A DNA stretch of 64,000 nt from a virus. The stretch lies in IMG/VR virus record IMGVR_UViG_3300016472_000923; one strand, written 5' to 3'. A program made the translations under genes and the position numbers. The notes below the pieces were generated by a model. The model saw only the letters and a list, made by a program, of their open reading frames with translations, ran no database searches and was not told the origin of the DNA. The first letter of the stretch is position 1. Each line of letters begins with the position of its first letter. Shown one piece after another: positions 10,808 through 64,000 of this stretch.

Positions 10808-10809
10808 TC

Positions 10810-16431: not shown

Positions 16432-16436
16432 TGGGA

Positions 16437-16444: not shown

Positions 16445-16465
16445 GGTAGTTAATGGGTAGAGATT

Positions 16466-17125: not shown

Positions 17126-17128
17126 GAT

Positions 17129-18946: not shown

Positions 18947-18947
18947 A

Positions 18948-20095: not shown

Positions 20096-20121
20096 GTTTT
20101 TCCTTGTTCGTTATGTAGGTA

Positions 20122-20127
20122 TATTTA
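20122..20127 (-). promoter_or_regulatory. T4-like late promoter TAAATA
   Basis: Upstream of SD AAGGA and ATG 20095. Confidence 0.55.
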
Positions 20128-22261: not shown

Positions 22262-22293
22262 GTTATTCCTTGAAACAAATATAGTTATGATCG

Positions 22294-23052: not shown

Positions 23053-23501
23053 ACTTGGATGTCCTCCATGCCTGCAGTTCGCAGGCGCACGATATGGCCC
23101 ATCTGCCATTGTTTGGTATCAAGCCCTTTCATGATACCCAACCAACGATTGCGTAGCAAGGCCACTTCGTTGATTATGGTCTCAAAGTCTATGACTTCGT
23201 CCTCGCCGTCTACATACTTTTCGGCGTCGCGGCTGGTGAGTTGCCGGGCATAAGCTTCGAGATATTTTTGGAAATGACGACGACGGATTTTCCGCAGTTG
23301 TATATTGAGAAAATTCAGTATGGCTTCGATTTCTTGCAGTTGATTGAAACGATGCTCTGTGATACCAGGAAGCTCTTTGATGTTGTGTTCTACATAACCG
23401 CCGATCCTGCACTCGCGTTTGGCCTCCTCTAGCTCACGCTCATAATGCGCGATAAAGTCAGGAATGGAGCCAAGGTTAGCGACTACGCGACTATACCACA
23501 T
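23049..23501 (-). CDS. uvsY: UvsY-like recombination mediator
   Basis: Helical 150 aa with AEKYVDGEDEV and KQWQ..IVRLRTAG; close to uvsX. Confidence 0.72.
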   Translation of the reverse strand: MWYSRVVANLGSIPDFIAHYERELEEAKRECRIGGYVEHNIKELPGITEHRFNQLQEIEAILNFLNIQLRKIRRRHFQKYLEAYARQLTSRDAEKYVDGEDEVIDFETIINEVALLRNRWLGIMKGLDTKQWQMGHIVRLRTAGMEDIQV

Positions 23502-24750
23502 AGGCTTCGTATTTGGTCAACCACGGAAACAATGATCTCCAATCTGTCCCACGACGGCGATCCTTTTCGTCAAGATAGGTCATGAGTTTGGTGATCTCTG
23601 CAATATTGATTTGGCTTTTTTGTATGCGGTTCATTATACCTTGCATGTAACCTTTGGTGATTAGATCTTCTTCTGATTCAGTGGGCATGATGGCCAATAT
23701 TTTTTCAAAATCCTCTTTGAACTCCTCACCGCCGAGTATACCAGCATCAAAATATGAAGGGCCCGGCGTAGGGCCACTGAAATGGTAGTGTATCTTTTTG
23801 GTAAGACTCCAGTGGTTTATTTTGGCTAGTAGTTCGGGCATGGTCTTGATAGTCAACGCTGTGATCGTGCTGTTTATATTAATGTACAGCCATTTATTTG
23901 TCAATAGATACTCAAAATTGGCTTCCCATTGTTTGAGATCTAATCCAGACCGCACAAATTCTTGTTGCGGCCCCCAACAATCTAGACTGCAAGTGATATC
24001 TATGCGACCCAGTTTTTTTGCGAGCACTAAATCTTTTAACCGTTCTATGAGATTCTTGACTCTATCAATATCTGCGCTGAGATTGGTCACGATATTCAAC
24101 TCGCATCTTGGATTGGGATATCGTGCGATCATTTCCAACAGGGTGTCTGTTTCTTTTTGATACAACGGTTCGCCACCCAAAACACCAAGTCGTCGCAGTC
24201 GTGGAAATCCCTCAGGGAACCACTGCCAAAAACTAGGAGACAAATCTCGACTTTGATTTTTGACTTCTTCTAATAAGATGCCTCTCTTTTCAAATCTACC
24301 AAATTTTCTGTTCTCTTGATTTATCGCCGAACTTAATCCACCGTGGCAATACAGGCAAGACAAATTGCAGGTATTATTGAAGAAGACCTCGACCACTGTT
24401 GGGTAAACATGTACTGCAGTAGGATCACTATCTAGTTCTTCAGGATAAAGATCTGGAATATCGATTTGCCGCAGGCGGTCACTGATTCCACCTTTTTCCT
24501 CGATGTTTCTGCAGTATCCGCAACTTTTGTCTGGCCATTGGCCTTGCAGCATCTTTTCTCGATCGGCCAACACTTCTCGATTGTTATGGAAATCATCGAA
24601 ATTTTCAGGGGTGAGGCTATATTGCCCTGTGCGATGGCAGGTCCGAGAATAGCCGGGTGATAGATATAATGCAGTCCAACTCCATTTCAGTTGGCAGGAT
24701 GTGGCTGTACGGATAGGAAAGATTCTTTGCCTATCAGTAGTCCTCTTCAT
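23491..24750 (-). CDS. Radical SAM protein with N-terminal Cys-rich (twitch-like) region
   Basis: CNLSCLYC, LGGEPL, TN; extra CHR..CGYC. Confidence 0.9.
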   Translation of the reverse strand: MKRTTDRQRIFPIRTATSCQLKWSWTALYLSPGYSRTCHRTGQYSLTPENFDDFHNNREVLADREKMLQGQWPDKSCGYCRNIEEKGGISDRLRQIDIPDLYPEELDSDPTAVHVYPTVVEVFFNNTCNLSCLYCHGGLSSAINQENRKFGRFEKRGILLEEVKNQSRDLSPSFWQWFPEGFPRLRRLGVLGGEPLYQKETDTLLEMIARYPNPRCELNIVTNLSADIDRVKNLIERLKDLVLAKKLGRIDITCSLDCWGPQQEFVRSGLDLKQWEANFEYLLTNKWLYININSTITALTIKTMPELLAKINHWSLTKKIHYHFSGPTPGPSYFDAGILGGEEFKEDFEKILAIMPTESEEDLITKGYMQGIMNRIQKSQINIAEITKLMTYLDEKDRRRGTDWRSLFPWLTKYEAYVV

Positions 24751-33739: not shown

Positions 33740-34474
33740 TTATACCTTTTGCTGGATCTGATCAGCCCAAGCCGTGGTACTGAGCCAGCGTTGATAGATC
33801 GAATCTGCTGTGCGTTGATGCTGTGCCAAATATGGCTCTATGCCTGAGATTATGCCTGTGCTGTCCTGAACTGTGTCGTACTGTGTTCTTGCCTCTGCCC
33901 ATAGTGGATCCTCGTCATGGGCCCAGGCTTGTGCTTTGTCCGCATCCATCTCGATATGGAACTGCATGGCTAGATGTGGTCCCATGCTCCAGGCTTGATT
34001 GGGACAAGCAGGGCTAGATGCCAACTTTGTTGCGCCTGGGGGCAAGTCAAACGCTTCATAGTGCCACTGTATCACCACAGGAGTGGGATCGTCTCCAAAC
34101 CAATCTTTCACAGCAGGATCATCAGTGTAGGTTATAGGCTGCCAACCTATCTCAGGCCTAGGACTGGTTTTGATTTCGGCACCCAACGCACGGCTCATGA
34201 GTTGTCCTCCCAAACAGTGTCCTATCACGGGGATATCATTGAGGACGGCCTGCAGAATCAGGATCTCTGCCTGACGGTTGCTGAGCAAGGGATCGTTTGA
34301 ACTCATACCACCGCCCATCACAGCCAGTGCCGAGAATGGCTCTATGCTGGAAGGAAATTCTTCGCCGTCACCAGCATTGCGGATTTCATAATGGATGCCT
34401 TTGCGATCCAACCAGGTACGGAGATAAGCTGCTCGTTCAGGAGTTTGATGCTGGAGGATCAGTACGGGCTTCAC
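33740..34474 (-). CDS. Class I glutamine amidotransferase-like hydrolase
   Basis: MGG, GHCLGGQL, EIGW, QWHYE, QFHIE (Cys-His-Glu triad). Confidence 0.92.
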   Translation of the reverse strand: MKPVLILQHQTPERAAYLRTWLDRKGIHYEIRNAGDGEEFPSSIEPFSALAVMGGGMSSNDPLLSNRQAEILILQAVLNDIPVIGHCLGGQLMSRALGAEIKTSPRPEIGWQPITYTDDPAVKDWFGDDPTPVVIQWHYEAFDLPPGATKLASSPACPNQAWSMGPHLAMQFHIEMDADKAQAWAHDEDPLWAEARTQYDTVQDSTGIISGIEPYLAQHQRTADSIYQRWLSTTAWADQIQQKV

Positions 34475-40442: not shown

Positions 40443-40874
40443 TTATTTTTTACCATTTCTGAATAACTGGTCTTCTGTGATCACACGGAAGGTCAGACCT
40501 TGCCTGCGACACCATTTGGTGGCAGCGTCCCATTTGCAGTAATTGACAGCGACCACGGCTCGGTCTCTATTAGACGCCTTGCTTTCGATGATGCTTTGTT
40601 TTTTGGGTTTGATCTCGACCAGTTCGGCCCGTTGGCGCCCGTTCTTGTCAGCATAGACCACCAAAAAGTCAGGTATGTAGTTGGTCATGCGACCAGTGAA
40701 GGGATGGCGATATGGAATAGAGATTGATTCTGATGCCCACTGCAGGATGTGCTTGTTGTTGTCACAGAATTGCATGAAGGCCAACTCCCATCCCGATCGA
40801 TACCTTGGAAGACCTTTGCCCACATATTTGTCTGTGTTAATGGGACGGAACACACCCTGCGCAAACTTGCTCAT
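40443..40874 (-). CDS. gp4: Head completion nuclease (T4 gp4/TnsA-like)
   Basis: YRSGWE, WASE, IPY, YIPDF, VEIKP, KWDAA, ITE. Confidence 0.88.
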   Translation of the reverse strand: MSKFAQGVFRPINTDKYVGKGLPRYRSGWELAFMQFCDNNKHILQWASESISIPYRHPFTGRMTNYIPDFLVVYADKNGRQRAELVEIKPKKQSIIESKASNRDRAVVAVNYCKWDAATKWCRRQGLTFRVITEDQLFRNGKK

Positions 40875-43132: not shown

Positions 43133-46100
43133 TTAGACGGTGGTCGACGATGCGACTTGTCCAGCTGATATCTCGCCGGTGTTCTTGATTCGCAATGGAA
43201 TATAGATGAACTCCACTGCTTTCACGGGCTCTATAGCGATATCAACCCAAAGCTCGTTGCGATCAATTCTAGCCGGTGTGTTGTTGCTCTCGTCACAGAC
43301 CACTAGGTAGTCATAGATACCGCGCTTGGCTACTAGATCGATCATGAGACTGTTTACAGCATTGGTCATCTCGTTGCGAGTGATCTGATCGTTGGGCTCA
43401 AACACAAACTGAGAACCAATCTCTTCCAGGCGTCCGCGGACGAATGCTATCAACCGTGCCACGTTGATACGATCCAAAGCCGAAGTAGTTGCTGCTTCAG
43501 TCTTGTTGCCATAGTTGACTATACCTGCACCTGGAATAAAGGTTATAGGATTGATCTTGTTGGTATACAAGGTATCACGCAAGCCCTGACCCGTGGCTAT
43601 GGTCACGAATTCACCTGTCTGGCCGTTGATATATCCAATGCGTTCAGCATTGTCTACCAGGCCGCGACGCACGCCAGCCGGGGCCAACCAGGGGAACGCC
43701 ACTTCGTCGTTGCGGATGAAAGTACGGACCATCATATGGCTAGGAGGCTGTACCACTGGGCTGCCACTAAGATCTGTGGTCTGGCAGCTAGGATAGAATG
43801 TGGCCAAATAAGTGTCAGCCGTTACCAATCCAGATTCCGTATCTGTAGTCACTCCAGCGGTGTTTGTAGCCCAGGCAGTGATGGCAGTGCCAGTGGGTTC
43901 AAGACGCAGAGGAGTGTCGCCAATCACGAAGCCAGTGTTGCTGCGCTCGTTGTTGAGTGCGACCATGTTGGGGATCAGTTCAGGATATTGTGGTGTTGCC
44001 AAAAGATTGAACTGTACTTGCTCTTCACGCAATGTATCTTGCGTGTCGATGGCCGATTTCATTGCTGCCACCACCAAAGCACGCACCGCTTGCCGTCCCA
44101 TGTAGGGTGAACCGTCGTTGCGATTTCCTGAAGCTGTGACCCAAGCATTGGTCTCCAGCGTGGACCAGTAGGCAGTATTTGTAGGAGCGTTACCGGTGCT
44201 GTTCTGGATACACACATAAAGCACAGCATTGTACAACACTTTGTCTCCCACCACATAAGCTGTGGAAGCTGAGTAGGTGTCAAATGAGAAGTCAGTCGCG
44301 TTGAAATAGTCGCTTTGGAAAGATTTCACATTGAATCCTGACCGGCGTGTGTTGAACAACAACATACCTTCAGGATACAAAGTGGGTTCAGGAGCGTCAA
44401 TGTCCAAATAATCACTGGTCAGCAAGCTGGTGATAGTGGGGATATTGTCTGTTATAGGGTTGGTCGTACCATTGGGGGCCCATCGGGCATCTGCAAACAA
44501 TATACCGTCTGCGGTGGTCTGATCTGAATTGACGATCTGGACCCATTGCAACACACCGTCTACCTGCTGCCAGCGTTTGATCACAGGATACAGTTCGAGA
44601 TTTGATGTATCGATCCAAAGGTCGCCTTGCACCAGAGCGGTTCCATCACTTTGCTCAGTGGGTGCTGTCACAGAAACAATTGGGCCTGCAGGGTCAGTTT
44701 GCGTGAGATTGAAACCACGCACATCGTTGGTCACTGTCTGATAACCTTTCCAGCCGCCGTCGTCCTGGATCATGATATCCACTTGGTCGGTAGCAGAATA
44801 ATACCAGTAACGGCCGTCTGCGGGATCTTGATCGGGTGCGGTGTCGCTGGCTGTGTACTCTAGAGGCACCCAACCCGAAAGGATCAGTGCCGAAGTTGAA
44901 CCAGGCTGCAGTCTCACTCCGGTGACATCAGTGTTGAATCCTGCATCAAAAACTGGTCCGCCGCTGAGCGAACCCCCGTCGAGGACAACCACTCCGCCCA
45001 AGCTGTGCGTGATAGCGACAGCGCCATCCGATGTAACAGCAGCAGACACAGGTGCACCTGCAGGTATCGCTGCCGAAAATGCTGACACGAAAGCAGCAGC
45101 CGTAGATCCGGCCAAGGTAGCAGTGACCGCTGTGGTCAGTGTGCCGCTGTTGGCCACGCTGTACTGTATGGTAAAGGTTTCGCTAGAAACGAAAGTGGGC
45201 GTATCATTGTCACCAGTGGTCACAGTGGCACCAGTGTTTAACCGTTCAAAAACTTTCAGCGTGAATGTGTTGTTTCCTGAACCAGATTCTGGTGCCACAT
45301 TGTATTGTGTATAAGTGGAACCGGCTGGTATGTTCTTACCACCGCCTGCAGGATCAAGCGCAGCATTGGCTGACTGATCGTTTTCATAGATAGGCGCAGC
45401 TTGCTGCACAAACAGGCCCAGTGTAGCATCATACTTTTTGACGATGATGTCAGCACCAGAATTTACTGCCGTGGTCACATTCCACACAGAGCCAGTGGGC
45501 CGAGGTGTGGTCTGGCCAGTGGCCCAGCGCGGGTTGGTATAGTTGGGGCTTTGCTGCAGCGCAGGTGAATAGTAAGTACCTGCTGTGATGCCCAAGGTTG
45601 TCAGTGGGGTGCCAGTGTCGTTGGCGATGGTGATAGCACCATCAGGAGTAGAATCAACTGTGCCCGAATCGCTGTCAGCATACAGCCAAAGTTTGTTGCT
45701 GGTCAGTGTGAGATTGGTCTCGGCCGTGACGCCAGCGATGCCAGCACCGTTGATGTCGGAAACCAAGCTGGCCAAGGTCTGCCCAGTCAATGTGACTTCA
45801 ATTTCGTTGATCTGGATCTTGTTGCCCACTGTCAGAGCATTGCCGGTCACAGTGTTTGATCCTTGCACTGTGGGCCAAGAATTTTTCCAATCATCGCTAC
45901 CAACGAGTACCCAAGCATTGTCATTGTTTTTGTAGTACACAGGGTTGTTGGTATTGGTGGCTACCACTGCATAGTCACCAATGGCGCCTACGGAGCTAGC
46001 CGGGATGCCACCGCTGAGTTCTGCAGTATCTGTGATCACCGTGGGTGTCTGTAGTGTGAATGCTCCCGTGGTTTGATTCCACTGGAATATACCCCAGGCA

Positions 46101-46525
46101 GTGCTGGCAGTATCCAGCCAGTATGTATCAGCAGCTGGAGCGCCGGTAGGACGCACCAGGCTGGCAGTAAGTTCAGCAAGATCGATGTTGGCGCGCTGTA
46201 CATAAGCACGATTAGAGATGCCCAAGGCACTGTAAGCAGCCAGCAAGCCATATTCGTTGAGCTCGTATCCGTTGATTGGTGTGCCAGCAGATGTCTTGTA
46301 GAAAAACGGATTGCCAAATGTAGCAGATAGATCGCGCTGGCTAGTTATGAGATAAACTTTGCCGGCATTTGCTGCCAGGGTACCGGCGGCCACACCAACT
46401 CCGGTTCCGGAAATCTTATTCTGTGCTGTGGCGATCAAGAAATAAGGTACCGAGTTAGTCGCTGCAGGAATGTAGTTCGACTCGTCGATTACTGTTACTT
46501 CTACGCCAGGGGATACAAGTGCCAT
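43133..46525 (-). CDS. gp18: Tail sheath protein with large insertions
   Basis: LVSPGVEV, WLAPAG.RRG, INPI, LDRINVARL, FVFEPND, CDESNNT, PVKAVEFIY. Confidence 0.95.
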   Translation of the reverse strand: MALVSPGVEVTVIDESNYIPAATNSVPYFLIATAQNKISGTGVGVAAGTLAANAGKVYLITSQRDLSATFGNPFFYKTSAGTPINGYELNEYGLLAAYSALGISNRAYVQRANIDLAELTASLVRPTGAPAADTYWLDTASTAWGIFQWNQTTGAFTLQTPTVITDTAELSGGIPASSVGAIGDYAVVATNTNNPVYYKNNDNAWVLVGSDDWKNSWPTVQGSNTVTGNALTVGNKIQINEIEVTLTGQTLASLVSDINGAGIAGVTAETNLTLTSNKLWLYADSDSGTVDSTPDGAITIANDTGTPLTTLGITAGTYYSPALQQSPNYTNPRWATGQTTPRPTGSVWNVTTAVNSGADIIVKKYDATLGLFVQQAAPIYENDQSANAALDPAGGGKNIPAGSTYTQYNVAPESGSGNNTFTLKVFERLNTGATVTTGDNDTPTFVSSETFTIQYSVANSGTLTTAVTATLAGSTAAAFVSAFSAAIPAGAPVSAAVTSDGAVAITHSLGGVVVLDGGSLSGGPVFDAGFNTDVTGVRLQPGSTSALILSGWVPLEYTASDTAPDQDPADGRYWYYSATDQVDIMIQDDGGWKGYQTVTNDVRGFNLTQTDPAGPIVSVTAPTEQSDGTALVQGDLWIDTSNLELYPVIKRWQQVDGVLQWVQIVNSDQTTADGILFADARWAPNGTTNPITDNIPTITSLLTSDYLDIDAPEPTLYPEGMLLFNTRRSGFNVKSFQSDYFNATDFSFDTYSASTAYVVGDKVLYNAVLYVCIQNSTGNAPTNTAYWSTLETNAWVTASGNRNDGSPYMGRQAVRALVVAAMKSAIDTQDTLREEQVQFNLLATPQYPELIPNMVALNNERSNTGFVIGDTPLRLEPTGTAITAWATNTAGVTTDTESGLVTADTYLATFYPSCQTTDLSGSPVVQPPSHMMVRTFIRNDEVAFPWLAPAGVRRGLVDNAERIGYINGQTGEFVTIATGQGLRDTLYTNKINPITFIPGAGIVNYGNKTEAATTSALDRINVARLIAFVRGRLEEIGSQFVFEPNDQITRNEMTNAVNSLMIDLVAKRGIYDYLVVCDESNNTPARIDRNELWVDIAIEPVKAVEFIYIPLRIKNTGEISAGQVASSTTV

Positions 46526-46552: not shown

Positions 46553-46560
46553 TATTTATA
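46553..46560 (-). promoter_or_regulatory. T4 late promoter TATAAATA for the sheath gene
   Basis: Exact consensus, embedded in the palindrome ACCTATA-tt-TATAGGT. Confidence 0.75.
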
Positions 46561-53425: not shown

Positions 53426-53853
53426 ACGCAGTAGGCGTATGGTTTTACAGCATCAGCACCGACCGTTATCTTTATCTCATGCGAGATGATGCCAAGCACC
53501 CAGGATCGTGGGGATTGCCCGGAGGCAAAGCCGAGGCTGGCGAAAGCCTGTTGGTAGCGATGAAACGCGAGTGTGAAGAAGAGATTGGCGGTTTTCCAGA
53601 TTTCGTCAAACTCATCCCTTTAGAGATGTTTACCAGCGACGATGGTAGATTTAGATATCACACATTTTTCTGCGGCGTGGATGAGGAATTCATTCCTCGA
53701 TTGAACCATGAACACCATGGGTATGCCTGGATTGACAGCGACCATTGGCCAAAACCCTTGCACCCAGGACTGTGGTCTACTTTAAACTTTGATGCGGTGC
53801 AATCTAAAATCAAGTCTATCACCCAAAGCATGCAGGATCAGACATCGCAATAA
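53407..53853 (+). CDS. NUDIX hydrolase
   Basis: PGGKAEAGESLLVAMKRECEEEIG Nudix box; start uncertain (53407 or 53422). Confidence 0.9.
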   Translation: MEPGVVNAVGVWFYSISTDRYLYLMRDDAKHPGSWGLPGGKAEAGESLLVAMKRECEEEIGGFPDFVKLIPLEMFTSDDGRFRYHTFFCGVDEEFIPRLNHEHHGYAWIDSDHWPKPLHPGLWSTLNFDAVQSKIKSITQSMQDQTSQ

Positions 53854-54503
53854 CTGATCCAAGATCTGTAGTCTTGGCAGATGACATTGCGCAGTCTACG
53901 CCACTCCGGAGGCATGCGGCTTTCTACTCCTACCAAGATGAATAGTGTGGTATCATAAGCAGCCATGACCCGTCCAATATCTGCTACAGTGTGGTCGGTC
54001 AACCAAGGCGTATCAAGGCTGGCGCCCAATAAAAAGATTTCACGGTGGCCGTCAAATGCGGGAAGATACACTGCTGTGGCCTGGCTGTCCATCGATGGTG
54101 TCATGGGTATGAGATACAGGCGGCCGGGGTAAGTCAGTACAACCCTGGGTGTGGTATATACCGTGCATCGTTCTTCGTATCCTTGCGCGACCATGGCATC
54201 AATTTCAGATCTTTCTTTACCAATCCAAAAATCTAAAATCATGTCTTGCCAGATGCGGCCTGTGGCATAGGTCTGTAATCGTTTTTTACCAAGCAAGCCT
54301 CCACGATGCCGTTGCAATCTAGCGAAATCAAACAAGCCTCGATCCGCATCGCTAATTATGACTGCGGCACGACCTGAGATGTGATGATTTTCAATGGGAT
54401 TAGGAATCCACTCGCGGCTTTGTTGTTTCATACCACCGGACCAGCGTGTTTCTGTGACTAGAAACTCGCCGCTGTAATCACGGCGATAGCACGGCAATGT
54501 CAT
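53838..54503 (-). CDS. Hypothetical protein
   Basis: 221-aa ORF coupled to the upstream fibre gene. Confidence 0.55.
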   Translation of the reverse strand: MTLPCYRRDYSGEFLVTETRWSGGMKQQSREWIPNPIENHHISGRAAVIISDADRGLFDFARLQRHRGGLLGKKRLQTYATGRIWQDMILDFWIGKERSEIDAMVAQGYEERCTVYTTPRVVLTYPGRLYLIPMTPSMDSQATAVYLPAFDGHREIFLLGASLDTPWLTDHTVADIGRVMAAYDTTLFILVGVESRMPPEWRRLRNVICQDYRSWISYCDV

Positions 54504-55270
54504 AGTCGTCCTACTAAGACCTCTATGACACCAGGACCATCGCTATCATGATTTTCCAGGGCTTTGCCGATTATCACCCCCGGTTGATACAGTGGTGCGG
54601 GTAGCACACAGGCATGACCTGGCACATTACTGCTGCACAACACATCACCGCGATTGACATAGCCCACTACTTGGCAGGGCACACGGCCCAGCAAGGCCAC
54701 AGTGACCGCGGTAGGAGAATCTTCAGTAGCGTTCATTATCACCGCTGGTGCGGTGGATACTACACCGGCTATTTTAGTTGACGCTAGGCTTGAAGATTGT
54801 GTCACTTCTTGCTGACCACCAATCTCCAGCACTGTACCAGGTTCATAGATCTCATCCGCGATGTACCGTTCTGCGATGTCAGCGTATTGTGCAGATGTGG
54901 CCTTGGCAAATACAGTGTTGAAATAACCGGTGGCATTGCCAATATTGCCGGTGCCATTGGCTTGGCTGTTGACTATGCCAGCCGAAGTAAAAGCTGCTAT
55001 GCCTGATCCGCCCACTGTAATAGCGATACTGCCACCTGAACTCAACACTTTTACATTAGAAGTTCCATTGGATATAGAATCGGCGCTCAAAGTACCAATC
55101 TCAGCATCAACATAGGCCACAGTAGCGAGATTGCCGCCGCCACCGGCCGTGGTACCATCATGCACTCTCAGCGTCCAGTTGGTAGTGTCCACGGTAATCT
55201 CGCCCAAAGCACCAGTAAAGGCGTTGTTTTGTGTGGCAGTGCCTCGGCGATATTGTACTTGTGTGCTCAT
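54500..55270 (-). CDS. Short fibre protein: Mtd/hyaluronidase-like N-terminus and ADxAExY C-terminal domain
   Basis: VQYRRGT..FTGALGEITVDT..HDG; YADIAERY...LLGRVPC...IIGKAL; TAAATA at 55288-55293. Confidence 0.75.
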   Translation of the reverse strand: MSTQVQYRRGTATQNNAFTGALGEITVDTTNWTLRVHDGTTAGGGGNLATVAYVDAEIGTLSADSISNGTSNVKVLSSGGSIAITVGGSGIAAFTSAGIVNSQANGTGNIGNATGYFNTVFAKATSAQYADIAERYIADEIYEPGTVLEIGGQQEVTQSSSLASTKIAGVVSTAPAVIMNATEDSPTAVTVALLGRVPCQVVGYVNRGDVLCSSNVPGHACVLPAPLYQPGVIIGKALENHDSDGPGVIEVLVGRL

Positions 55271-55296
55271 TTTTTATTCCTTGCTGATATTTATGT

Positions 55297-57696
55297 TTAT
55301 GCCCCGCGCATCATAGAACCATTGAACCAGGAAATTGTTCCTGTTCCTGCATTTTGTACAGTTCTATTGGCTCCACTGGTTTGTTGTGCATATATTTCAA
55401 AATAATCACCCGTGCCGTTAGCATATACCAAACAACTGATGTTCATGGTCCAGAAATCGTTGGCAAATGCTGTGCCAGATTGATTCCATGATCTCCGGAA
55501 TGCTGCACCGTTCTTGTAGACCACGATCATACACTCGCCAGTCCCGGGACCGCCACCGTCCATACGGATGGCCGAATTGAGTTGATAGTATCCTTCGACT
55601 GTGGGAGTGAATGTTGAACTGGCAAAATTACTATTGGTGTCAAAATCTTCTGTCCCAAATAATACTTTCTGCAGTGACCCGGATGTGATAGTTTGTGCTG
55701 TACCCGAACTGGGATAAGCCGAAAATGCTGGCCCATTGACTGCTTGTTTTCCCGCAACAGATATTGGACCTGTTACACTCAACCCACCAGAGTTAGTCAA
55801 GCTCAATATAACACTGCTGTAGGCACTGTCCACAACTTCCAATCCGCCAGTACTGGTCAAGCGGAATGTCTTGTTGGGATTGGTAGCTCCGCCGGAAGAG
55901 TTTGTGGCTTTTAGGAAGTCTGCGTAGCCTGTGCCGCCTTGGGTGTTGGCTGCGCTGACTTGGATACCGGAACCTATGGCCGTTGCCGGAGCATAGGCAA
56001 TGATGGCCTGTCCGCTGCTAATAAGATTTCCAGCCGTTATGTTGCCAGTGGTAGTGATCACTGCATTAGCGGTCAGTATATTGCCATTGATTGAGTTGAC
56101 GATAAAGTTATCATTGCTGACAAAACCTTCAATGTAAAAACTACCAAGGTCATAACTTTCTGTCACTGCAGCGGTCACGCTGCCTAGGTCTTCGGACACT
56201 GTCACTGCTTCGGTGACCAGCCCCATGTCGCCGCCAGTGGCAAAAATACTTTCACTGCCTACAGATGATATGGTAATAGTGTTATTGGCAGCATCAGTGG
56301 TGATAGCTATGCCCGATCCCTCGGCTAAGGTCAGAGTATCACTAGTGTTATCCGCGCTGACTGTTGTTTCTCCTGAAACTGCGATGTTACCAAAGGCATT
56401 GATTCCCGTAAGTTGGCTACCGTTGCCAAGTATATAGGACCCTGTAACATTGCCACTGGCTGTAACGGTAGTGGCAGTGACAGCACCATTAGATACTAAA
56501 TTCCCACCCGACACATTGCCGGTGGCATTTACAGTACCAGCTGTGGATAAATTGCCAACCGTAGCTGTACCTGTGGCAGTTATGGTAGTGGCAATGACAG
56601 TGGAATTGGATATTAGGTTACCACCCGAGATGTTGCCTGTGGCATTGACAGTACCTGCTGTACTGACATTACCAAATATACCCGTACCAGTAGTGGTAAT
56701 GTTAGTAGCAGTGACGGTAGCATTGGATACCAGATTACCACCTGAGATGTTGCCCGTGGCATTGATAGCACCAGTGGCAGATATATCAGTTGTGTTGACA
56801 GTGGTCACTGTCAGCGAAGTACCAGTGATAGTGCCGTTGGATGTCAGATTGCCACCCGAAATATTGCCAGTGGCATTGACAGTACCCGATGTGCTGACAT
56901 TGCCAAATGTGCCTGTACCTGTGGTAGTGATCGTTGTACCGGTTATGGCCGAGTTGGACACAAGATTGCCACCCGAAATATTGCCAGTGGCATTGACAGT
57001 ACCCGATGTGCTGACATTGCCAGTGGCACTCACACGTCCTGTGACATCCAGGCCTGATGTGGAAAAAACTGCTATGTTGCCGGTACCACCTATGCCCACA
57101 GTGACATTGCCGCCTGAGCTGACAACATTGACGTTTGATGTACCGTTAGAGATACTGTTGAGGCTGATGCCAGTGACACCGATGGTCACTGTCTTTGATG
57201 TGTTGTTGCCGGTGATGGCGATGTTGTCGCCTGCGGTCAGCGTGACTGTTCCGCCTACAGCATTGGCCAATACTGCAGTTCCATTGGCATAGATATTGCC
57301 AAACGCATAGGCAGAGTTCTGTTCAAATACCAGAGCAGTGGTGCCGATGACGATAGGATTGTTGGTAGTCAGCTTCCATTGCGTGTCTTTGTACTCATCG
57401 CCTTCGGTGACCATGACGATCATGCCGGCCTGGATCTCGCCAGTCTCATTGCCGTCTGTGGTGCGCACCCAAGTGCCGTTGTTGCCCGCGCCCACGGTCT
57501 GCACATAATATAGACCGTTTTGGCTGCCAGTGCTCTGTCCAGCCACCAGCACCCGATCGTCCGCAACCAAGCTCACACCATCCACAGTGGCCGGGGCCCC
57601 ACCTGCCAGTGTGATGTTGCTCAGTGTGATCACACGCACCGCTTGCTTGTAGTCGATGTCGGAGATCTGCTCCGCCCTGATCCGCGTCAATCCCAT
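55297..57696 (-). CDS. Fibre protein with ~39-aa repeats and a C-terminal C1q-like domain
   Basis: RVLVAGQ..QNGLY; GNxxGGNL repeats; PAFSAY...FDT..F....FTPTVEGYY; start MGLTR with SD GGTGA. Confidence 0.8.
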   Translation of the reverse strand: MGLTRIRAEQISDIDYKQAVRVITLSNITLAGGAPATVDGVSLVADDRVLVAGQSTGSQNGLYYVQTVGAGNNGTWVRTTDGNETGEIQAGMIVMVTEGDEYKDTQWKLTTNNPIVIGTTALVFEQNSAYAFGNIYANGTAVLANAVGGTVTLTAGDNIAITGNNTSKTVTIGVTGISLNSISNGTSNVNVVSSGGNVTVGIGGTGNIAVFSTSGLDVTGRVSATGNVSTSGTVNATGNISGGNLVSNSAITGTTITTTGTGTFGNVSTSGTVNATGNISGGNLTSNGTITGTSLTVTTVNTTDISATGAINATGNISGGNLVSNATVTATNITTTGTGIFGNVSTAGTVNATGNISGGNLISNSTVIATTITATGTATVGNLSTAGTVNATGNVSGGNLVSNGAVTATTVTASGNVTGSYILGNGSQLTGINAFGNIAVSGETTVSADNTSDTLTLAEGSGIAITTDAANNTITISSVGSESIFATGGDMGLVTEAVTVSEDLGSVTAAVTESYDLGSFYIEGFVSNDNFIVNSINGNILTANAVITTTGNITAGNLISSGQAIIAYAPATAIGSGIQVSAANTQGGTGYADFLKATNSSGGATNPNKTFRLTSTGGLEVVDSAYSSVILSLTNSGGLSVTGPISVAGKQAVNGPAFSAYPSSGTAQTITSGSLQKVLFGTEDFDTNSNFASSTFTPTVEGYYQLNSAIRMDGGGPGTGECMIVVYKNGAAFRRSWNQSGTAFANDFWTMNISCLVYANGTGDYFEIYAQQTSGANRTVQNAGTGTISWFNGSMMRGA
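56440..57030 (-). repeat. About five tandem ~117-bp (39-aa) coding repeats
   Basis: Near-identical units, e.g. at 56851 and 56968 (117 bp apart). Confidence 0.8.
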
Positions 57697-57717
57697 GAGT
57701 TCACCATAATCATGCAA

Positions 57718-57756
57718 TATTTAGCCAAAAAAATAGGGCACAGCAGTGCCCTATTT
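57718..57756 (-). terminator. Rho-independent terminator followed by late promoter TAAATA
   Basis: AAATAGGGCAC/GTGCCCTATTT stem with T-run; TAAATA at 57718-57723. Confidence 0.85.
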
Positions 57757-57770
57757 GCTGCTCCATGAGC

Positions 57771-60700
57771 TTACAGCCTTCCCACTACCACTTCGATCAT
57801 GCCATCTGCGCCGTCAAAGTCGGCCAGGGCCTTGCCTATGATGGATCCTGTGATGGGATCTGTTTCTGCACGGGCACGGCCATCTCCGGTGGCTACCAAC
57901 ATGTCGCCTTTGCGTATGGTCCCTGTGACGCGGGTGGGCACGCGACCTGTCAGAGCTACTGCCACGACATAGTCTCCAGACAGACCTGCATTCATGATAT
58001 AGCTGGGATTGGTGGAAACCACGCCTGCGATTCTACGGCATGCATCAGTGCTGCATGTTGTGACTTCTTTGGCGCCACCAAAACACACCACTGTACCGGG
58101 TTCAATGATCGAATCGGCTTCGTACATCTCTGCTAGGTCGGCATATTGGGCCGAGGTAGCCGTGGCAAATATGGTGTTGAAATACCCAGTTGAGCTACCG
58201 ATATTTCCAGTTCCATTGGCGTTGCCGTTTAGGAAGTTGCCTGTGAGCACAAATGCGTTGCTGCCATCACCTTCGAAAGTCGCCGATCCGCTGGACAGAC
58301 CGGTCACTGTGGTTGTAGTGGTCAATATACGAGCATCAATCACATCACTGACTTCAGGTGCTTCGGTGAACACCAAGCTGTTGCCCGACACACTGTAAGC
58401 CGTGGTCGGGATCTGCACGATACCGTTGATTGAAACTATGGTGCCTGCCGTGGTTGAATCTTGGCTCAGCGTGAATGTGTTGGCCACGCCGTTGCCAACA
58501 AACGAGTCGGCCACGATCACAGTGAATGTGGTACCAGCTGATGTCCAAGAATCGTTGTCGTAATACTCCAGACTATCAGTGGTTGTATTGAAACGGAGCA
58601 TGCCGGTGACGCCGGTACTGGGTCGCTGAGCCGTGTTGCCCACAGCGATCAACACAGATGTGGTGGCTCCCACAGCCAAAGCAGCATTGGCGGTATTGGC
58701 GCTGTTGACCAGGGCATTGCCAATGATGGTCTTGCCTACTATGTTGCCTGTGCCAGAAACTTCAAGATTGCCCAAGGTACCTGTGGTAGTCACGGTCAGC
58801 GCACCGTTGCTGTTCAAATTACCACCTGCGATGTTGCCAGTGGCATTGACAGTGCCTGCTGTAGACAGATTGCCCACAGTAGCTGTGCCTGTGGTTGTCA
58901 GTGTAGTACCGGTGATAGTGCTATTAGAATTCAAGTTACCGCCGGTGATATTACCAGTGGAGTTGACAGTACCAGTGATTGATGCATTACCCACTGTCAT
59001 CAAATTAGTTGATTTATCAAATGTAAAGCTTGATGAAGCTCCTAATAAATCGCCGTCGTTGAACTGTACCTGTGTATTTGCTCCAGCAGCATCAATGTTG
59101 CCAGAAATGTTACCAATGAAGTTTGCTGCAGTGACGTTACCGGTGAATACTGCTCCTGTGCCCGTGACATTGGCCGTGGCATTGATATTGCCACCATTGA
59201 TGTTGCCTGTGGTACTGATTGTGCCTGATGTTGCACTGATAGCACCAGTTGTTGTCAACGTGGTACCAGTGATAGCGGCGTTGGATACTATATTGCCACC
59301 TGATACATTGCCGGTGGCGTTGACTGTTCCAGTGGTGGAAACATTGCCAAATGTACCAGTGCCCGTAGTGGTTATAGTAGTACCGGTTATGGTACCATTG
59401 CTGTTGAGATTACCACCTGTGATGTTTCCAGTGGCGTTGATTACACCTGAAATTGAAGCGTTACCGGCCGACACATTGCCAGTCAATACCAAACTGGTAC
59501 CAGTGGCAGCGCCAATGTTAGGAGTGACTAAATTAGCACCAGCCTTGACGATGATATTACCACCACCATCAAATGCTGTGGTATCATTGTCAACTTTGGC
59601 AGAAAAAACCGTTCCTGTCAACAATATACCAGCTGCTGTATTTGCTGTGTATGTCTGGCTGGAAGAAAACTGGGCAAACTCAATGTTAGAAGTTCCAAAG
59701 GTTATGGTCCCAGTGGGAGCGTCAACCACCCAGGCAGATCCTTTGTTGACATTACCGGATGTGACGAAGAAGTAGTCATTGTAACTGAGTTGGGTAGTGC
59801 TGTTGGCTCCGTACTCATCAGCATCTGTGGTGCGGATGATAGCCGTGGCGTTGGCCCAGTAGTAAATACCGTTGAGCGCAGCATTGCCTTCGTTCTTGAC
59901 CAAAATACGAGTATTCGCTGTTTGCACATTGGCATCATCGATTAGATTAAAAGACCCAGTGGTTGAGATAGTACCACCAATGCCGTTGGCAGCACCATTG
60001 GGCTGTGTATAAGTGATGGTGCCACCTGTGGTAGCAGCAAGAGTAGTAGTGGTAGCAGCTACCACCGATTGGTGATAGGTAAGTCCGGTTGCGACCATGG
60101 TGTCTACATAGACCTTGCTGGCAGCATCTGTATCTTGTGTAGGATAACCAAGATTATTGATCCACTGGTTGTTCATCACGATGTTGCCAGATCCATCCCA
60201 TTGCATTACGCCACTGGCAGAATTTAGGATAAGATCGCCTGATGTAGTGGTCACTGTTCCGGTATTCACTATGGCAGCAGTAACATTGCCCGTGGCTGTG
60301 ACTTGACCTGAGGTGCTTAAATTACCAACCGAAGCGTTGCCTGATGTGGTCAGTGTGGTGCCAGTGATAGCAGAGTTAGATACTATATTGCCGCCTGATA
60401 CATTGCCAGTGGCATTTACAGTACCGGTGGTAGATACATTACCAAAAGTACCAGTACCAGTTGTGGTTATCGTCGTTCCGGTGATAGTCCCGTTGCTGTT
60501 GAGATTACCACCTGTAATATTGCCAGTGGCATTGACTGTACCAGTTGTAGATAAATTACCTACCGTAGCGGTGCCCGTAGTGGTTATAGTAGTACCGGTT
60601 ATGGTACCATTGCTGTTGAGATTACCACCTGAGATATTACCTGTGGCATTGACCGTGCCTGCGGTGGATAAATTTCCAACTGTGGCAGTAGTCGTCACAG

Positions 60701-61490
60701 TGGCAGATCCATTGGATGTCAAATTGCCGCCTGACACATTACCAGTAGCGTTTACAGTACCTGCTGTAGATAAGTTACCAACAGTAGCTGTGCCTGTGGT
60801 TGTCAGTGTAGTACCGGTGATAGCGCTGTTAGAATTTAAGTTACCACCAGTTATGTTACCGGTAGCGCTGACCGTTCCAGATGTGGATACATTACCAACC
60901 GTGGCCGTGCCTGTGGTTGTCAGTGTGGTGCCAGTGATAGCAGCGTTGGAATTCAAGTTGCCACCTGTGATGTTGCCAGTAGCATTGATCTGCCCTGTGA
61001 CAGAAATGTTGCCAATAGAGACATTGGCAACAGTTGTGGTACCAATCACGGTCAAGTTACCAGCCACATTGGCATCAAAGGTATGGAAGTTGGCGTAACT
61101 GGTGACATTCAGTGTAGTGTTGCTGACCACGGTGTTGGTAAACACAGTAGCAAATTCATCGTTGGCTTCTATCCAAGCAAAAGCGATATTGTCAGATGAG
61201 CCGCGCTCGCCTATGAAACCTATGTCAAATGTGGGGCTGCCAGTCTGATCTTTGGCTAAAAGCAGCAGAGGATCCTCGATCACAACGTTGTAAGTGTCAA
61301 TCGTGGTGGTGGTACCTTGCACGTCCAAGTTGCCCTGCACTGTGAGGTTACTGGCATAGGTGAGGTTGTTGGCTAATTTTCCTGCGGTAACAGAATAATC
61401 TTGTACTTTGGTACTGGCATTGATGCCAAGATAGGTATTACCTGCTGAGGAATCAGTTACCTGATTGTTTAGAATTCGGGTCAATGCCAT
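57771..61490 (-). CDS. Long fibre protein (1239 aa) with repeats and ADLAEMY C-terminal domain
   Basis: IEDPLLLL, GNITGGNL repeats, DAASKVYVD, RILVKNE..NGIY, YADLAEMY; TAAATA at 61523-61528. Confidence 0.82.
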   Translation of the reverse strand: MALTRILNNQVTDSSAGNTYLGINASTKVQDYSVTAGKLANNLTYASNLTVQGNLDVQGTTTTIDTYNVVIEDPLLLLAKDQTGSPTFDIGFIGERGSSDNIAFAWIEANDEFATVFTNTVVSNTTLNVTSYANFHTFDANVAGNLTVIGTTTVANVSIGNISVTGQINATGNITGGNLNSNAAITGTTLTTTGTATVGNVSTSGTVSATGNITGGNLNSNSAITGTTLTTTGTATVGNLSTAGTVNATGNVSGGNLTSNGSATVTTTATVGNLSTAGTVNATGNISGGNLNSNGTITGTTITTTGTATVGNLSTTGTVNATGNITGGNLNSNGTITGTTITTTGTGTFGNVSTTGTVNATGNVSGGNIVSNSAITGTTLTTSGNASVGNLSTSGQVTATGNVTAAIVNTGTVTTTSGDLILNSASGVMQWDGSGNIVMNNQWINNLGYPTQDTDAASKVYVDTMVATGLTYHQSVVAATTTTLAATTGGTITYTQPNGAANGIGGTISTTGSFNLIDDANVQTANTRILVKNEGNAALNGIYYWANATAIIRTTDADEYGANSTTQLSYNDYFFVTSGNVNKGSAWVVDAPTGTITFGTSNIEFAQFSSSQTYTANTAAGILLTGTVFSAKVDNDTTAFDGGGNIIVKAGANLVTPNIGAATGTSLVLTGNVSAGNASISGVINATGNITGGNLNSNGTITGTTITTTGTGTFGNVSTTGTVNATGNVSGGNIVSNAAITGTTLTTTGAISATSGTISTTGNINGGNINATANVTGTGAVFTGNVTAANFIGNISGNIDAAGANTQVQFNDGDLLGASSSFTFDKSTNLMTVGNASITGTVNSTGNITGGNLNSNSTITGTTLTTTGTATVGNLSTAGTVNATGNIAGGNLNSNGALTVTTTGTLGNLEVSGTGNIVGKTIIGNALVNSANTANAALAVGATTSVLIAVGNTAQRPSTGVTGMLRFNTTTDSLEYYDNDSWTSAGTTFTVIVADSFVGNGVANTFTLSQDSTTAGTIVSINGIVQIPTTAYSVSGNSLVFTEAPEVSDVIDARILTTTTTVTGLSSGSATFEGDGSNAFVLTGNFLNGNANGTGNIGSSTGYFNTIFATATSAQYADLAEMYEADSIIEPGTVVCFGGAKEVTTCSTDACRRIAGVVSTNPSYIMNAGLSGDYVVAVALTGRVPTRVTGTIRKGDMLVATGDGRARAETDPITGSIIGKALADFDGADGMIEVVVGRL
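60290..61000 (-). repeat. Tandem ~39-aa coding repeats in the long fibre gene
   Basis: About six GNx(S/T)GGN units; further copies at ~58800-59450. Confidence 0.8.
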
Positions 61491-61561
61491 GCTTTTTCTC
61501 CGGCCTCAAGGGCTATCAGAGTTATTTACCGTTTCTAAAAAAAACTATTGTATGGGTGTAT

Positions 61562-63160
61562 CTAAGTGCTGATGGTAGCACCAAGCGCAACACGCTTCCA
61601 TGCACCGCTGCTGTACACGGCTAGACAGGCATTACCGCTGTCACCATTGGTCACATATATCAGCTGCCCAGCAGCAGTATTTCCCAAAGCATTGGCCTGT
61701 GCTACGGAGTAGGAAGGCAGTTGTACGCTTAAGGTAGCAGCAAGATTTCCAACACCAGATTCATCAACGGATATGGCGTTGGTTCCAGCATCATTGGTTA
61801 TTTCGCTTATAGTAGCCACAGGAGAGATGAATCTCACCGTGACAGTGTCTGCCACAGCCGGTGGTTCTGCAAAAGTTATCACATTGCCTGTTACTGTATA
61901 AGCCACACCGGGCTGCTGCACCACACCATTGTTGACTACTATGATGCTGTTAGCGGTAGCAGTTTGTTCCAAAGTAAAAGTGTTGGCTACACTATTACCA
62001 TCTATGACCTGCGTGGTTATAGACCCAAAGGTGTTACCCACAGATATCCAATCTGTGCCAGTGTAGACTTCGGTGATTTCTGTAGCTGAATTGAATCGTA
62101 TAGTACCTGCAGCAGCATTTCCCGGGCGCTGGGCAGTATTGCCCGTGGGCAAAACCATGCCAGTGGCAGCATCTATGACCAGTAATCCATTGACCGCAGC
62201 GGTGGGCGTGATCGTGATGTTGGCAAAGGTACCGTCAGTGGTGATGGTGGTGTTGGCAAATACGAGATTTCCAGTGTTTGTGGCGATTTCATCGTCGACA
62301 TAACCTTTGGTAGCAGCGTCACTGTCGACCACGGGTGTAGCCAACCCATTGATATTGACCGAAGCAAGGATTATGTTGCCGGCACCTAAAATTTGGGTAG
62401 ATCCAATCACGGCATTGGCCGTGGTCTCAATGTTGCCCGTGGCTGAAATTCCGTCCTGGAAATATACATAGGCGTTGGCTGCGGAAGACACATTTTCAAC
62501 CACGAGGTCAGTGAAGTTGCCAGTGTTCGCTGAAACGGTGCCACTGGTGATATTTCCGTTGCCCACCGAGCCAACTGTCAATACCACATTGGCTGAATCA
62601 AATAGAAGATTGGCACTGGCACCAAAGTCACCATTGTCATTGTATTGTATTTGCCCCGACGATCCTGCCGGTTGTTGGAAATCAATGGGCGATCCGTTAG
62701 CATAAAGATAATTGTCAGACAGGATATTGCCTGCTGAAAGGTTGCCAGTGATGGTCAGTACTGTGCCATCCCAGGTGAGATCAGAGTCAGTGATAGCATA
62801 ACTGGCAGCGTTGGCAAACAACACGCCATTGGCAGTAGCGGTGCCAATGCGTAGATCTGTAACATTGGACAGATTGCCTTGGAATACATTGGCAAACAGA
62901 AAGTCTGCGTAACTGCCAGCGCTGCCTATATTGCCGCTGTAAACAGGGAGATAAGCAGCCACGTTAGCATTGCTGTAAGTGGCGCCTCCGGCCAGTGTGA
63001 CAAACTGTGTGCCATCAAAATACTCGATGGCAGTGCTGTCACTGTTATATCGTATCAGCCCGGATTCAGGAAATTCTGGACGAACCGCGGAATCGCCGCC
63101 AGGCAGCACAGCACCGGTGCTGCCACTGGGTATGCGGCGGTTTTTGACGAAATTTCCCAA
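61562..63160 (-). CDS. Fibre/virion structural protein
   Basis: Two P.G....RP....G.IR(F/Y)N modules, QIQYND, DAATKGYVD. Confidence 0.75.
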   Translation of the reverse strand: MGNFVKNRRIPSGSTGAVLPGGDSAVRPEFPESGLIRYNSDSTAIEYFDGTQFVTLAGGATYSNANVAAYLPVYSGNIGSAGSYADFLFANVFQGNLSNVTDLRIGTATANGVLFANAASYAITDSDLTWDGTVLTITGNLSAGNILSDNYLYANGSPIDFQQPAGSSGQIQYNDNGDFGASANLLFDSANVVLTVGSVGNGNITSGTVSANTGNFTDLVVENVSSAANAYVYFQDGISATGNIETTANAVIGSTQILGAGNIILASVNINGLATPVVDSDAATKGYVDDEIATNTGNLVFANTTITTDGTFANITITPTAAVNGLLVIDAATGMVLPTGNTAQRPGNAAAGTIRFNSATEITEVYTGTDWISVGNTFGSITTQVIDGNSVANTFTLEQTATANSIIVVNNGVVQQPGVAYTVTGNVITFAEPPAVADTVTVRFISPVATISEITNDAGTNAISVDESGVGNLAATLSVQLPSYSVAQANALGNTAAGQLIYVTNGDSGNACLAVYSSGAWKRVALGATIST

Positions 63161-63168
63161 GGACCACC

Positions 63169-63477
63169 TTAGATCGTGGTGTAACTGACTACAGCACCTA
63201 GGCTGGCACTGGAGTTGGCCTGCACTGTATCATTGGTGTCAAGCAGCAGTTTTTCACCAGCTTGGTAAAGTTGATAGGTATCACCGCCGGTGATCAGTAT
63301 GTTGGCCAGAATAATGGTCTGAGCATTAGCGGAACCGCCCGCGGGCACTGTCCAAACATTAGCCAGCACGTTTGAACCACTGCTATTGGTCAAAGTCAAC
63401 CAAGTGATAGCAGTACTGGATGCGCTGACATATATGTTTGCGGTACTGGATGAAACTGAAGCAGTCGTGATTGACAT
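63169..63477 (-). CDS. Small beta-sandwich virion protein
   Basis: 102 aa with EKLLLDTND; SD AAGGA. Confidence 0.6.
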   Translation of the reverse strand: MSITTASVSSSTANIYVSASSTAITWLTLTNSSGSNVLANVWTVPAGGSANAQTIILANILITGGDTYQLYQAGEKLLLDTNDTVQANSSASLGAVVSYTTI

Positions 63478-63486
63478 TTGTTGTCC

Positions 63487-64000
63487 TTAAAATATGATAC
63501 CAAAAACTATGGCCTTGCTTTTGCTGACCAACTCGTCCTGGGTGTTGTTGCTGTCAACGAAGTAAACGCCAGTGCCGCCAGATCCGGCAGCATCAGCATA
63601 GACTATGGTATTGCTGGCCACGTTGGCCGGCGTTGACGCCAGGTGGGCCAAGGTCAAGCGTCCATTGAGTCCCAGCGCATTGCCCACGGTATTGAATGTA
63701 AAAGCAGCCGAAGCTCCCAACACCGAGGCATTGTTGAACTGTATTTGGGTGTTGCTGCCCGCCGGTGTGGCGGTTATGTTAGCACCTTCTACTAGGATGT
63801 TGGCATAGCTTCCCGTGGCACCACTGTTGCCAGATGCTGTGTTAGAACTAACCTGCCAGACGTTAGCATTGCCATTGAACTGTATGGCCGCATAGGTAGG
63901 CAACACATTGCCTCCGCCTGTCTGCACAACCAAACCAAGATTTCCATAGCCCAGTGGGTTTCCCGGTCCAAGATTGTTTTCACCGGCCAAGATGAATGGT
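63487..64000 (-). CDS. Fibre-associated structural protein, 5' end outside the window
   Basis: Frame is open to the window edge (..PFILAGENN); has the AGSNTQIQFN module shared with the other fibres. Confidence 0.65.
   Translation of the reverse strand, partial: PFILAGENNLGPGNPLGYGNLGLVVQTGGGNVLPTYAAIQFNGNANVWQVSSNTASGNSGATGSYANILVEGANITATPAGSNTQIQFNNASVLGASAAFTFNTVGNALGLNGRLTLAHLASTPANVASNTIVYADAAGSGGTGVYFVDSNNTQDELVSKSKAIVFGIIF

Follow-up and report, generated by a model that had tools for sequence, protein, structure and literature searches.

Asparagine glycosylation of the HMW1C/NGT type is described as the work of cytoplasmic, soluble N-glycosyltransferases (NGTs), and the acceptors reported for HMW1C, ApNGT and AaNGT (glycosyltransferase family 41, GT41) are long, repetitive, fibrous surface proteins carrying dozens of N-x-S/T sequons (PMC3012730, PMC5303269, PMC10507012); for AtaC, 72 sequons are given, 59 of them in the passenger domain (PMC5303269). 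Here we examine a viral DNA of 64,000 nucleotides (IMG/VR record IMGVR_UViG_3300016472_000923), referred to below as the window, in which the region from position 54500 to the end holds six minus-strand genes for fibre-like products of 256, 806, 1239, 532, 102 and 167 amino acids (aa). The two largest fibres, f806 and f1239, resemble the NGT acceptors in length, repetitiveness and sequon content, and a preliminary description of the window had proposed that they are densely N-glycosylated by an enzyme of this type. Unlike the HMW1C/NGT systems, however, they are accompanied by no GT41 gene that could be found in the window or in five related records, and their preference for Ser/Thr after Asn is neither specific to Asn nor abolished by Pro. 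The sequon density is real, and it is probably best read as a by-product of a beta-strand motif, [GA]-N-φ-[ST] (φ = I, V or L), amplified by repeats.

Systems with O-linked sugars offer a second comparison. Maf enzymes are reported to O-glycosylate Ser and Thr of flagellin, to accept N-acetylneuraminic acid (Neu5Ac) or Kdo (3-deoxy-D-manno-octulosonate) donors and to possess a central modified GT-A domain related to Cst-II, and maf lies beside flagellin genes (bioRxiv 10.1101/2020.06.03.131540); similarly, the window contains a gene for a 221-aa protein with a predicted Maf-like fold that adjoins genes for filamentous, Ser/Thr-rich, self-assembling proteins. Unlike Maf, this protein has one third of the length, lacks the flanking domains and stays below the Pfam threshold, and it would act on a phage fibre instead of flagellin. 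Dense Ser/Thr glycosylation of repetitive, beta-structured passenger domains is also described for the O-heptosylated proteins AIDA-I, TibA and Ag43 (PMC5303269), to which the RfaE-domain-II-like and weak GT9 matches of a glycan island in the window give a lead only, without a confident heptosyltransferase. Among phages, mycobacteriophages are described as encoding glycosyltransferases that decorate their own virion proteins (Freeman et al. 2023, Cell Host Microbe 31:1216, via PMC12582341). The trimeric T4 fibres gp34, gp37, gp12 and fibritin belong to a virion of related architecture (the window has T4-type genes for the sheath, a gp15-like protein and the terminase), but, unlike the window fibres, they have neither a sequon excess nor a 39-aa repeat. 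In the mycobacteriophage case the targets are reportedly capsid and tail-tube proteins of actinobacteriophages, modified by other enzyme families, whereas the candidates here are fibres of a T4-like giant phage.

Sequons were counted as N-x(not P)-S/T and compared with 1000 composition shuffles of each protein. Both large fibres are enriched: f806 has 40 sequons against 19.9±3.7 (z 5.5; 0/1000 shuffles reach 40) and f1239 has 55 against 37.9±5.0 (z 3.4; 1/1000 reach 55), corresponding to 5.0 and 4.4 per 100 aa, where the median for window proteins of at least 150 aa is 0.41. The counts in the preliminary description, about 40 sequons in a fibre of about 800 aa and three to four in each 39-aa repeat, thus proved accurate (exactly 40 in f806; 2-6 per unit, mostly 3-4, over 15 units), all five tip sequons that it named (NQS, NIS, NGT, NRT, NGS) are present in the f806 tip, and the 1239-aa fibre is, as it stated, similarly rich. 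Its contrast with the tail sheath was right for the sequons, 13 being found where 14.4 are expected, but not for the sheath being equally S/T-rich (S+T 19.1% and N 6.9% in the sheath; S+T 26-28% and N 9.7-11.1% in the fibres). No excess was seen in f532 (9 vs 10.0 in shuffles), and that in f256 is not significant (5 vs 2.7, z 1.65, 104/1000 shuffles reaching 5). The neighbouring spacings, which the description had suggested as controls, behave as predicted: adjacent N-S/T is depleted (14 vs 20.2 in f806, 27 vs 38.6 in f1239) and N-x-x-S/T is flat (20 vs 20.1 and 36 vs 38.6).

Copying of the repeats explains part of the excess, about half of which lies in the 39-aa repeats. The repeat unit, with the consensus GN[VL]ST[SA]GTVNATGN[IV]SGGNL.SN..[IV]T.T.[IL]T.TGT.T. 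in f806 (an example is GNVSTSGTVNATGNISGGNLVSNSAITGTTITTTGTGTF), occurs in five copies in f806 and in ten in f1239, and its DNA has a tandem period of 117 bp with 75-80% nucleotide matches (75% in the f806 shaft). Taken together, the f806 repeats (residues 221-427) contain 21 sequons against 9.9 expected, while one unit alone contains 3 against 2.0 (p 0.29). Outside the repeats, f806 has 19 against 11.1 (p 0.008), including 5 against 2.3 in the tip (p 0.064), and f1239 has 18 against 16.6 (p 0.39).

The nature of the motif becomes apparent from the relatives of the window, for which 30 IMG/VR loci provided 387 open reading frames (ORFs) of at least 150 aa, 91 of them fibre-like; the pooled statistics use the 82 fibre ORFs that are non-identical, drawn from 28 of the 30 loci. 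N-x-S/T is enriched 1.45-fold in these fibres (2058 vs 1421, family-wide z 20) and stands at 0.99-fold in the non-fibre ORFs of the related loci. The mirror triplet S/T-x-N is also enriched (1876 vs 1426, 1.32-fold), adjacent N-S/T falls to 0.64-fold and N-x-x-S/T remains at 1.02-fold, an i/i+2 periodicity that points to strands. Asn is preferentially preceded by G (2.55-fold) or A (1.70-fold) and followed by I (2.46-fold), L (1.90-fold) or V (1.80-fold), with T (1.56-fold) and S (1.26-fold) at the second position after it; [GA]N.[ST] accounts for 1299 of the 2167 sequons, and the dominant motif [GA]-N-[IVL]-[TS] most likely marks the start of a strand. Enrichment of S/T at this second position reaches 1.79-fold when the middle residue is I, V or L, but only 1.09-fold with any other residue, and it is not specific to Asn, since S-[IVL]-S/T (1.81-fold) and T-[IVL]-S/T (1.65-fold) are on a par with N-[IVL]-S/T. 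Moreover, N-P-S/T, which according to PMC10507012 is accepted by neither NGT nor oligosaccharyltransferase (OST), is equally enriched (35/96, 1.57-fold). Under a strict null, in which N, S and T are shuffled only among their own positions, f1239 shows no significant excess (55 vs 48.8±4.9, p 0.12). On these controls, Asn-X(not Pro)-Ser/Thr does not appear to be selected as an acceptor motif as such. Individual sequons also turn over between close orthologs: of two orthologs of the f806 tip at 85% identity, neither retains NIS or NRT and only one retains NGT, and at the f806 N-terminus NIT33 is lost in 7/13 orthologs and NET89 in 8/13.

We therefore favour a structural origin, in which the shaft would be a Gly/Asn/Ser/Thr-rich beta repeat of 39 aa. 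A turn Gly would be followed by a strand starting at Asn, the next, hydrophobic residue would point to the core and the polar residue after it would lie on the face of the Asn. The polar strand positions would be common to Asn, Ser and Thr, yielding N-x-S/T, S/T-x-N, S-x-T and T-x-T in bulk, and duplication of the repeat would multiply the sequons. The sequon density would therefore be mainly a by-product of this structure and not a code for Asn glycosylation. The preliminary description had itself cautioned that Asn ladders in beta-fibres could mimic an acceptor pattern.

A number of observations weigh against a purely structural origin. The T4 fibres have no sequon excess (observed/expected 20/16.0 in gp34, 12/13.4 in gp37, 11/7.0 in gp12 and 13/8.5 in wac), and the pattern is therefore not general to fibres. 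Under the strict null, f806 retains 40 sequons against 25.7±3.7, with 0/1000 shuffles reaching 40, and its non-repeat part retains 19 against 13.3 (p 0.036); in the family, the forward triplet stands at 1.19-fold and the mirror triplet at 1.08-fold, leaving a residual directional excess, with forward exceeding mirror in 50 of 86 proteins, the opposite in 26 and ties in 10. When nothing but the hydrophobic positions is held fixed in the shuffle, none of the excess is absorbed (f806 null 19.7; family 1.49-fold), so simple hydrophobic/polar alternation is insufficient, and strand positions specific to N, S and T together with a G-N strand start are needed. With a hydrophobic residue in the middle, Asn and S/T would point away from the core and are thus probably exposed and accessible. 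The monomer model of f806 by AlphaFold2 (AF2), based on 19 sequences, predicts the repeats as short beta strands, but with a predicted local distance difference test (pLDDT) score of 48.1 it is too poor to support the strand geometry. Some sequons are, in addition, well kept: NGT79 (in NGTW) is invariant in 13/13 N-terminal orthologs, NVT204 is either kept or changed to NVS with the sequon retained, and the repeats retain their sequons although they are 20-25% diverged in DNA. Furthermore, the natural NGT substrates are, in the accounts cited above, themselves sequon-dense fibrous adhesins such as AtaC (PMC5303269), and the GT41 search reported below covers, of a genome that may measure 350 kb, the 64 kb of the window.

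On a separate line of reasoning, the fibres may still be glycoproteins, with sugar on Ser/Thr hydroxyls by analogy with Maf, and a gene for a Maf-like protein appears to be translationally coupled to the last fibre gene, with a conserved glycan island 31 kb away. The 221-aa product of this gene has no Pfam, NCBIfam or PHROG match. It has 1218 database homologues at E<=0.001, which are about 220 aa long, and its family comprises 190 representative clusters at 50% identity (E<=0.001). The AF2 model is confident (pLDDT 89.0), and its best match among 48,161 representative chains compared by VIA-align is the Magnetospirillum Maf glycosyltransferase 5mu5 (Z 11.3, root-mean-square deviation 4.1, 179 aa), model residues 13-221 aligning with 250-513 of a chain of 632 aa. 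The next matches are MptE HPPK (8sd5, Z 10.2) and the Cst-I, Cst-II and Pasteurella sialyltransferases (Z 8.1-8.8); all eight matches at Z of at least 8 are Maf, MptE, SteA or GT42 sialyltransferases, after which the scores drop to 6.5. Judged from this model, the protein would consist of a central modified GT-A domain resembling GT42 sialyltransferases, the fold of the Maf central domain (PF01973/DUF115; 5mu5, GkMaf, CbMaf), with the N- and C-terminal flanking domains of Maf absent. Foldseek with the same model returned no Maf match, only TIM-barrel-like matches at a TM score of about 0.25.

At the level of sequence profiles, PF01973 is the only recurrent Pfam signal in the family, and it remains below the cut-off of 34.6 bits in all 24 close members and all 46 distant representatives; sub-threshold matches were obtained for 1/24 close members (E 0.1) and 3/46 distant representatives (17-19.5 bits, E 0.0009-0.005). 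The nearest named ESM Atlas cluster (score 0.88) has PF01973 in 16% of its members. E13, S43, S51, D151, H153, E155 and D220 are invariant in the family and are candidate catalytic residues only; for Maf, catalytic acidic residues are given as E324/D415 in the M. magneticum enzyme and, in CbMaf, as D257 and D272 along with S334 (bioRxiv 10.1101/2020.06.03.131540). A profile search of the family against the Protein Data Bank (PDB) gave only ankyrin-repeat matches (designed ankyrins, E down to 7e-6) by way of a short 'LAAxxGHxEI' motif, which were judged spurious; the invariant A-F-D-G-H-x-E-I-F-L-L-G of the family (residues ~140-160) mimics the ankyrin consensus. The position of the gene is well conserved: among the 25 loci that reach the convergent NUDIX gene, several of them near-duplicates, 23 have it between that gene and the last fibre gene, the remaining two (L024 and L026) lacking it at that place. 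Two long relatives syntenic with the window, G001 and G002 (the contigs behind loci L007 and L024), encode divergent paralogues, at 133386-134015 (-) in G001, at the opposite end of the fibre cassette after the orthologue of the 167-aa protein (E 6e-31 with the family profile), and at 99944-100573 (+) in G002, 4 bases before the first fibre ORF (E 6e-35). A second copy may therefore lie just past base 64000 of the window.

Such an enzyme could O-glycosylate the fibres on Ser/Thr, with the sequons being incidental. This explanation is compatible with the structural by-product and, by analogy, is a tentative but serious possibility. The donor would possibly be a CMP-activated (cytidine monophosphate-activated) acidic sugar, which island enzymes might extend or methylate, and the N/S/T-rich strand faces might serve as the acceptor. 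It is favoured by the Maf core as the top structural match of a confident model, by PF01973 as the recurrent sub-threshold signal and its presence in the ESM Atlas cluster, by the overlap with the last fibre gene kept in 23/25 loci, by the paralogues at the other end of the cassette (G001) or before the first fibre ORF (G002), by the Maf precedent on flagellin Ser/Thr in the preprint cited above, and by the fibre S+T content of 26-28%. Besides the PF01973 cut-off that is never reached, the Foldseek search without a Maf match and the two loci without the gene, several points speak against it: the same fold occurs in the pterin pyrophosphokinase 8sd5 and in thiamine pyrophosphokinases, so that the fold does not fix the chemistry of the 221-aa protein; with 221 aa against 632 aa, it is missing the terminal domains of true Maf; and the window contains no genes for nonulosonic-acid or Kdo synthesis. 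A literature search found no report of Maf/DUF115 genes in phage fibre clusters. The proposal in the preliminary description that the fibres are acceptors of a phage glycan thus gains independent support from the Maf-like gene in the cassette and from the core of the island, kept in two relatives, but its Asn linkage does not, the precedent being O-linkage. Because the Maf-like gene is coupled to the fibres, their glycosylation is plausible, more likely on Ser/Thr.

The island, which would supply further enzymes, also encodes a nucleotidyltransferase-cupin fusion, and it shows an RfaE-domain-II-like nucleotidyltransferase match (E 3e-23, below cut-off) and a weak GT9 match (E 0.055). About ten of its genes are retained in G001 and in G002 each, and GT25 was found in 1/5 related records. 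At its edge lies the gene of a radical SAM protein with a twitch domain (23491-24750, minus strand; NCBIfam NF033640, E 3e-65), which is conserved in G001 and G002.

That Asn itself is glycosylated by a cytoplasmic N-glycosyltransferase, with island enzymes extending the sugar, appears improbable. Candidates would be an HMW1C/NGT-like enzyme, with its gene either beyond the window or in the host, and an island enzyme that has escaped recognition. Consistent with such a modification are the two-fold excess of sequons over composition, the directional excess that survives the strict null (50 vs 26 proteins), the preference for T over S at the second position after Asn (1.56-fold vs 1.26-fold), the invariant sequons, one of them retained through a T/S swap, the sequon-dense fibrous adhesins known as NGT substrates (PMC5303269, PMC3012730), the GT8-type gene in the window and the genome being only partly seen. 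Nevertheless, screening of the 67 window proteins at E<=0.001, and of the 21 unannotated ones at E<=5, found no GT41 (PF13844), in agreement with the preliminary description, which had recognised no NGT in the window; the wider search that it suggested gave PF13844 in 0/5 related records, among them contigs 222 kb and 177 kb long (the two large relatives being 64% and 51% complete), while control genomes were positive. Window ORFs longer than 440 aa encode the helicase, terminase, sheath, fibres and virion structural proteins or match only PHROGs of unknown function, leaving no unexplained protein of NGT size. Dense Asn-linked glycosylation by an HMW1C/NGT enzyme is further disfavoured by a preference that depends on the hydrophobic middle residue and is common to Ser and Thr in place of Asn, by the equal enrichment of N-P-S/T, by the 1.32-fold mirror triplet and by the turnover of tip and N-terminal sequons in close orthologs. 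Marginally less probable again is that a non-GT41 phage enzyme, from the island or from the unseen genome, glycosylates the fibres densely at [G/A]-N-x-[S/T]; the motif would then be the acceptor site and the exposed Asn/Thr stripe of each strand would bear the sugar. Finally, pure composition, with 10% Asn and 26-28% Ser+Thr, would predict 20 sequons in f806 and 38 in f1239, or 2.5-3 per 100 aa, which is already many times the window median, and it accounts for f532 and the sheath, but it can hardly be entertained for the large fibres, being refuted by f806 exceeding 1000/1000 shuffles, f1239 exceeding 999/1000 and the family z.

The controls show that counting sequons in Gly/Asn/Ser/Thr-rich beta repeats is misleading, and four of them can be reused on other sequon-rich proteins to tell sequons and strand motifs apart: counts of the mirror triplet and of N-P-S/T, the split by a hydrophobic middle residue, and the shuffle confined to the positions held by N, S and T. 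A literature search found no report of N-glycosylated phage fibres; were the Asn-linked reading true, these would be the first N-glycosylated bacteriophage virion or fibres, and modification by a non-GT41 enzyme would reveal a new class of soluble N-glycosyltransferase. The remaining interest lies in a small and very widespread family that is tied to the fibre cassette and is predicted to have the fold of flagellin-sialylating enzymes. Should its members prove to be transferases, the receptor-binding fibres of giant T4-like phages would carry a coat of sugar, with possible effects on host range, resistance to proteases and recognition.

The large terminase encoded in the window has its closest cultured counterparts in Pseudomonas phage PA5oct (52% identity) and Agrobacterium phage Atu_ph07 (51%). 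Pfam and PHROGs also recognise genes for the sheath, the tube, a gp15-like sheath stabiliser and gp32-like and UvsX/RecA-like proteins, and, judging from this gene content, the source of the window is an uncultured giant T4-like myovirus. An exact 40-mer of the window had no match in the collections viral_contigs and metagenome_contigs. The fibre genes lie in the tail block near the gp15-like, sheath and tube genes, and the N-terminus of f806 has PHROG matches to tail-fibre and virion structural families; by these sequence features the products are phage tail fibres. Their positions and modules are collected in the table below.

Features of the fibre region and of the proposed glycan island in the window
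Feature	Position	Strand	Remarks
221-aa Maf/MptE-like-fold protein, candidate fibre glycosyltransferase	53838-54503	-	start overlaps f256 end by 4 bases
f256, short fibre, last fibre gene	54500-55270	-	Mtd_N-type N-terminus (Pfam PF18454, E 1e-12); PHROG tail matches
f806, 806-aa fibre ORF	55297-57717	-	conserved N-terminal fibre domain, 39-aa repeat shaft, C1q-like tip
f806 C1q-like tip, residues 655-806	55300-55755	-	5 sequons
f806 repeat shaft, residues 221-427	56437-57057	-	~5.3 units of 39 aa
f1239, 1239-aa fibre	57771-61490	-	three 39-aa repeat blocks: residues 160-427, 676-760, 834-920
f532, fibre-like	61562-63160	-	PHROG match
Two small fibre-cassette proteins, 102 and 167 aa	63169-63990	-	cassette continues past window end
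Glycan/methylation island, proposed enzyme source, 20 genes	8418-23109		GT8-like, two GT25-like, PHROG 'glycosyltransferase', several methyltransferases

For f806, the ATG at 57696 is probably the true start rather than the listed TTG, giving a product of 799 aa; this ATG, seven codons downstream, is preferred because the orthologs begin with MGLTR or MALTR. By tblastn, the f806 tip matches a phage protein whose annotation reads 'c1q globular head like domain' (33.9% identity, E 6e-13), and in the weak model (pLDDT 52-71) it has the predicted strand pattern of a beta-sandwich; there is no Pfam match at E<=0.001. No cultured phage matched the fibre region in a megablast search, and in tblastn against cultured phages only the non-repeat end modules of the fibres were matched, because the repeats are filtered as low complexity. 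The C-terminal 145 aa of f1239 are 42% identical to a virion structural protein of PA5oct. A comparison of the fibre sequences with solved structures returned antibody matches only, which were judged to be chance. f1239 (57771-58230) and f256 (54500-54950), both on the minus strand, have in common a C-terminal module of about 150 aa (...SAQYADLAE.Y...GRL), which also occurs in PA5oct, Sinorhizobium phage Phosso and Campylobacter phages CP21/CP220 (38-42% identity) and may be a shared attachment or chaperone-type module. Between the f1239 and f806 genes lies a strong terminator-like hairpin of 11 pairs followed by a T run (57731-57756, minus strand), after which CTAAATA stands just before the f806 start; f1239 and f806 may therefore be separate transcription units.

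The T4-type late-promoter octamer TATAAATA has exact sites only at 16437-16444 (-) and 46553-46560 (-), just upstream of the island nucleotidyltransferase-cupin gene and of the sheath gene, and it is not enriched in the window (2 vs 0.9 expected; 21/100 shuffles reach 2), nor is the DGY tag, with 2 occurrences. The tail sheath (43133-46525, minus strand) is unusually long, with 1130 aa, and residues 750-780 weakly match the carbohydrate-binding module CBM_5_12 (below cut-off, E 3e-4). Two further minus-strand genes stand among the virion structural genes, one for a protein with a TnsA-like endonuclease domain (40443-40874, E 3e-20) and the other for a class-I glutamine amidotransferase-like protein (33740-34474).

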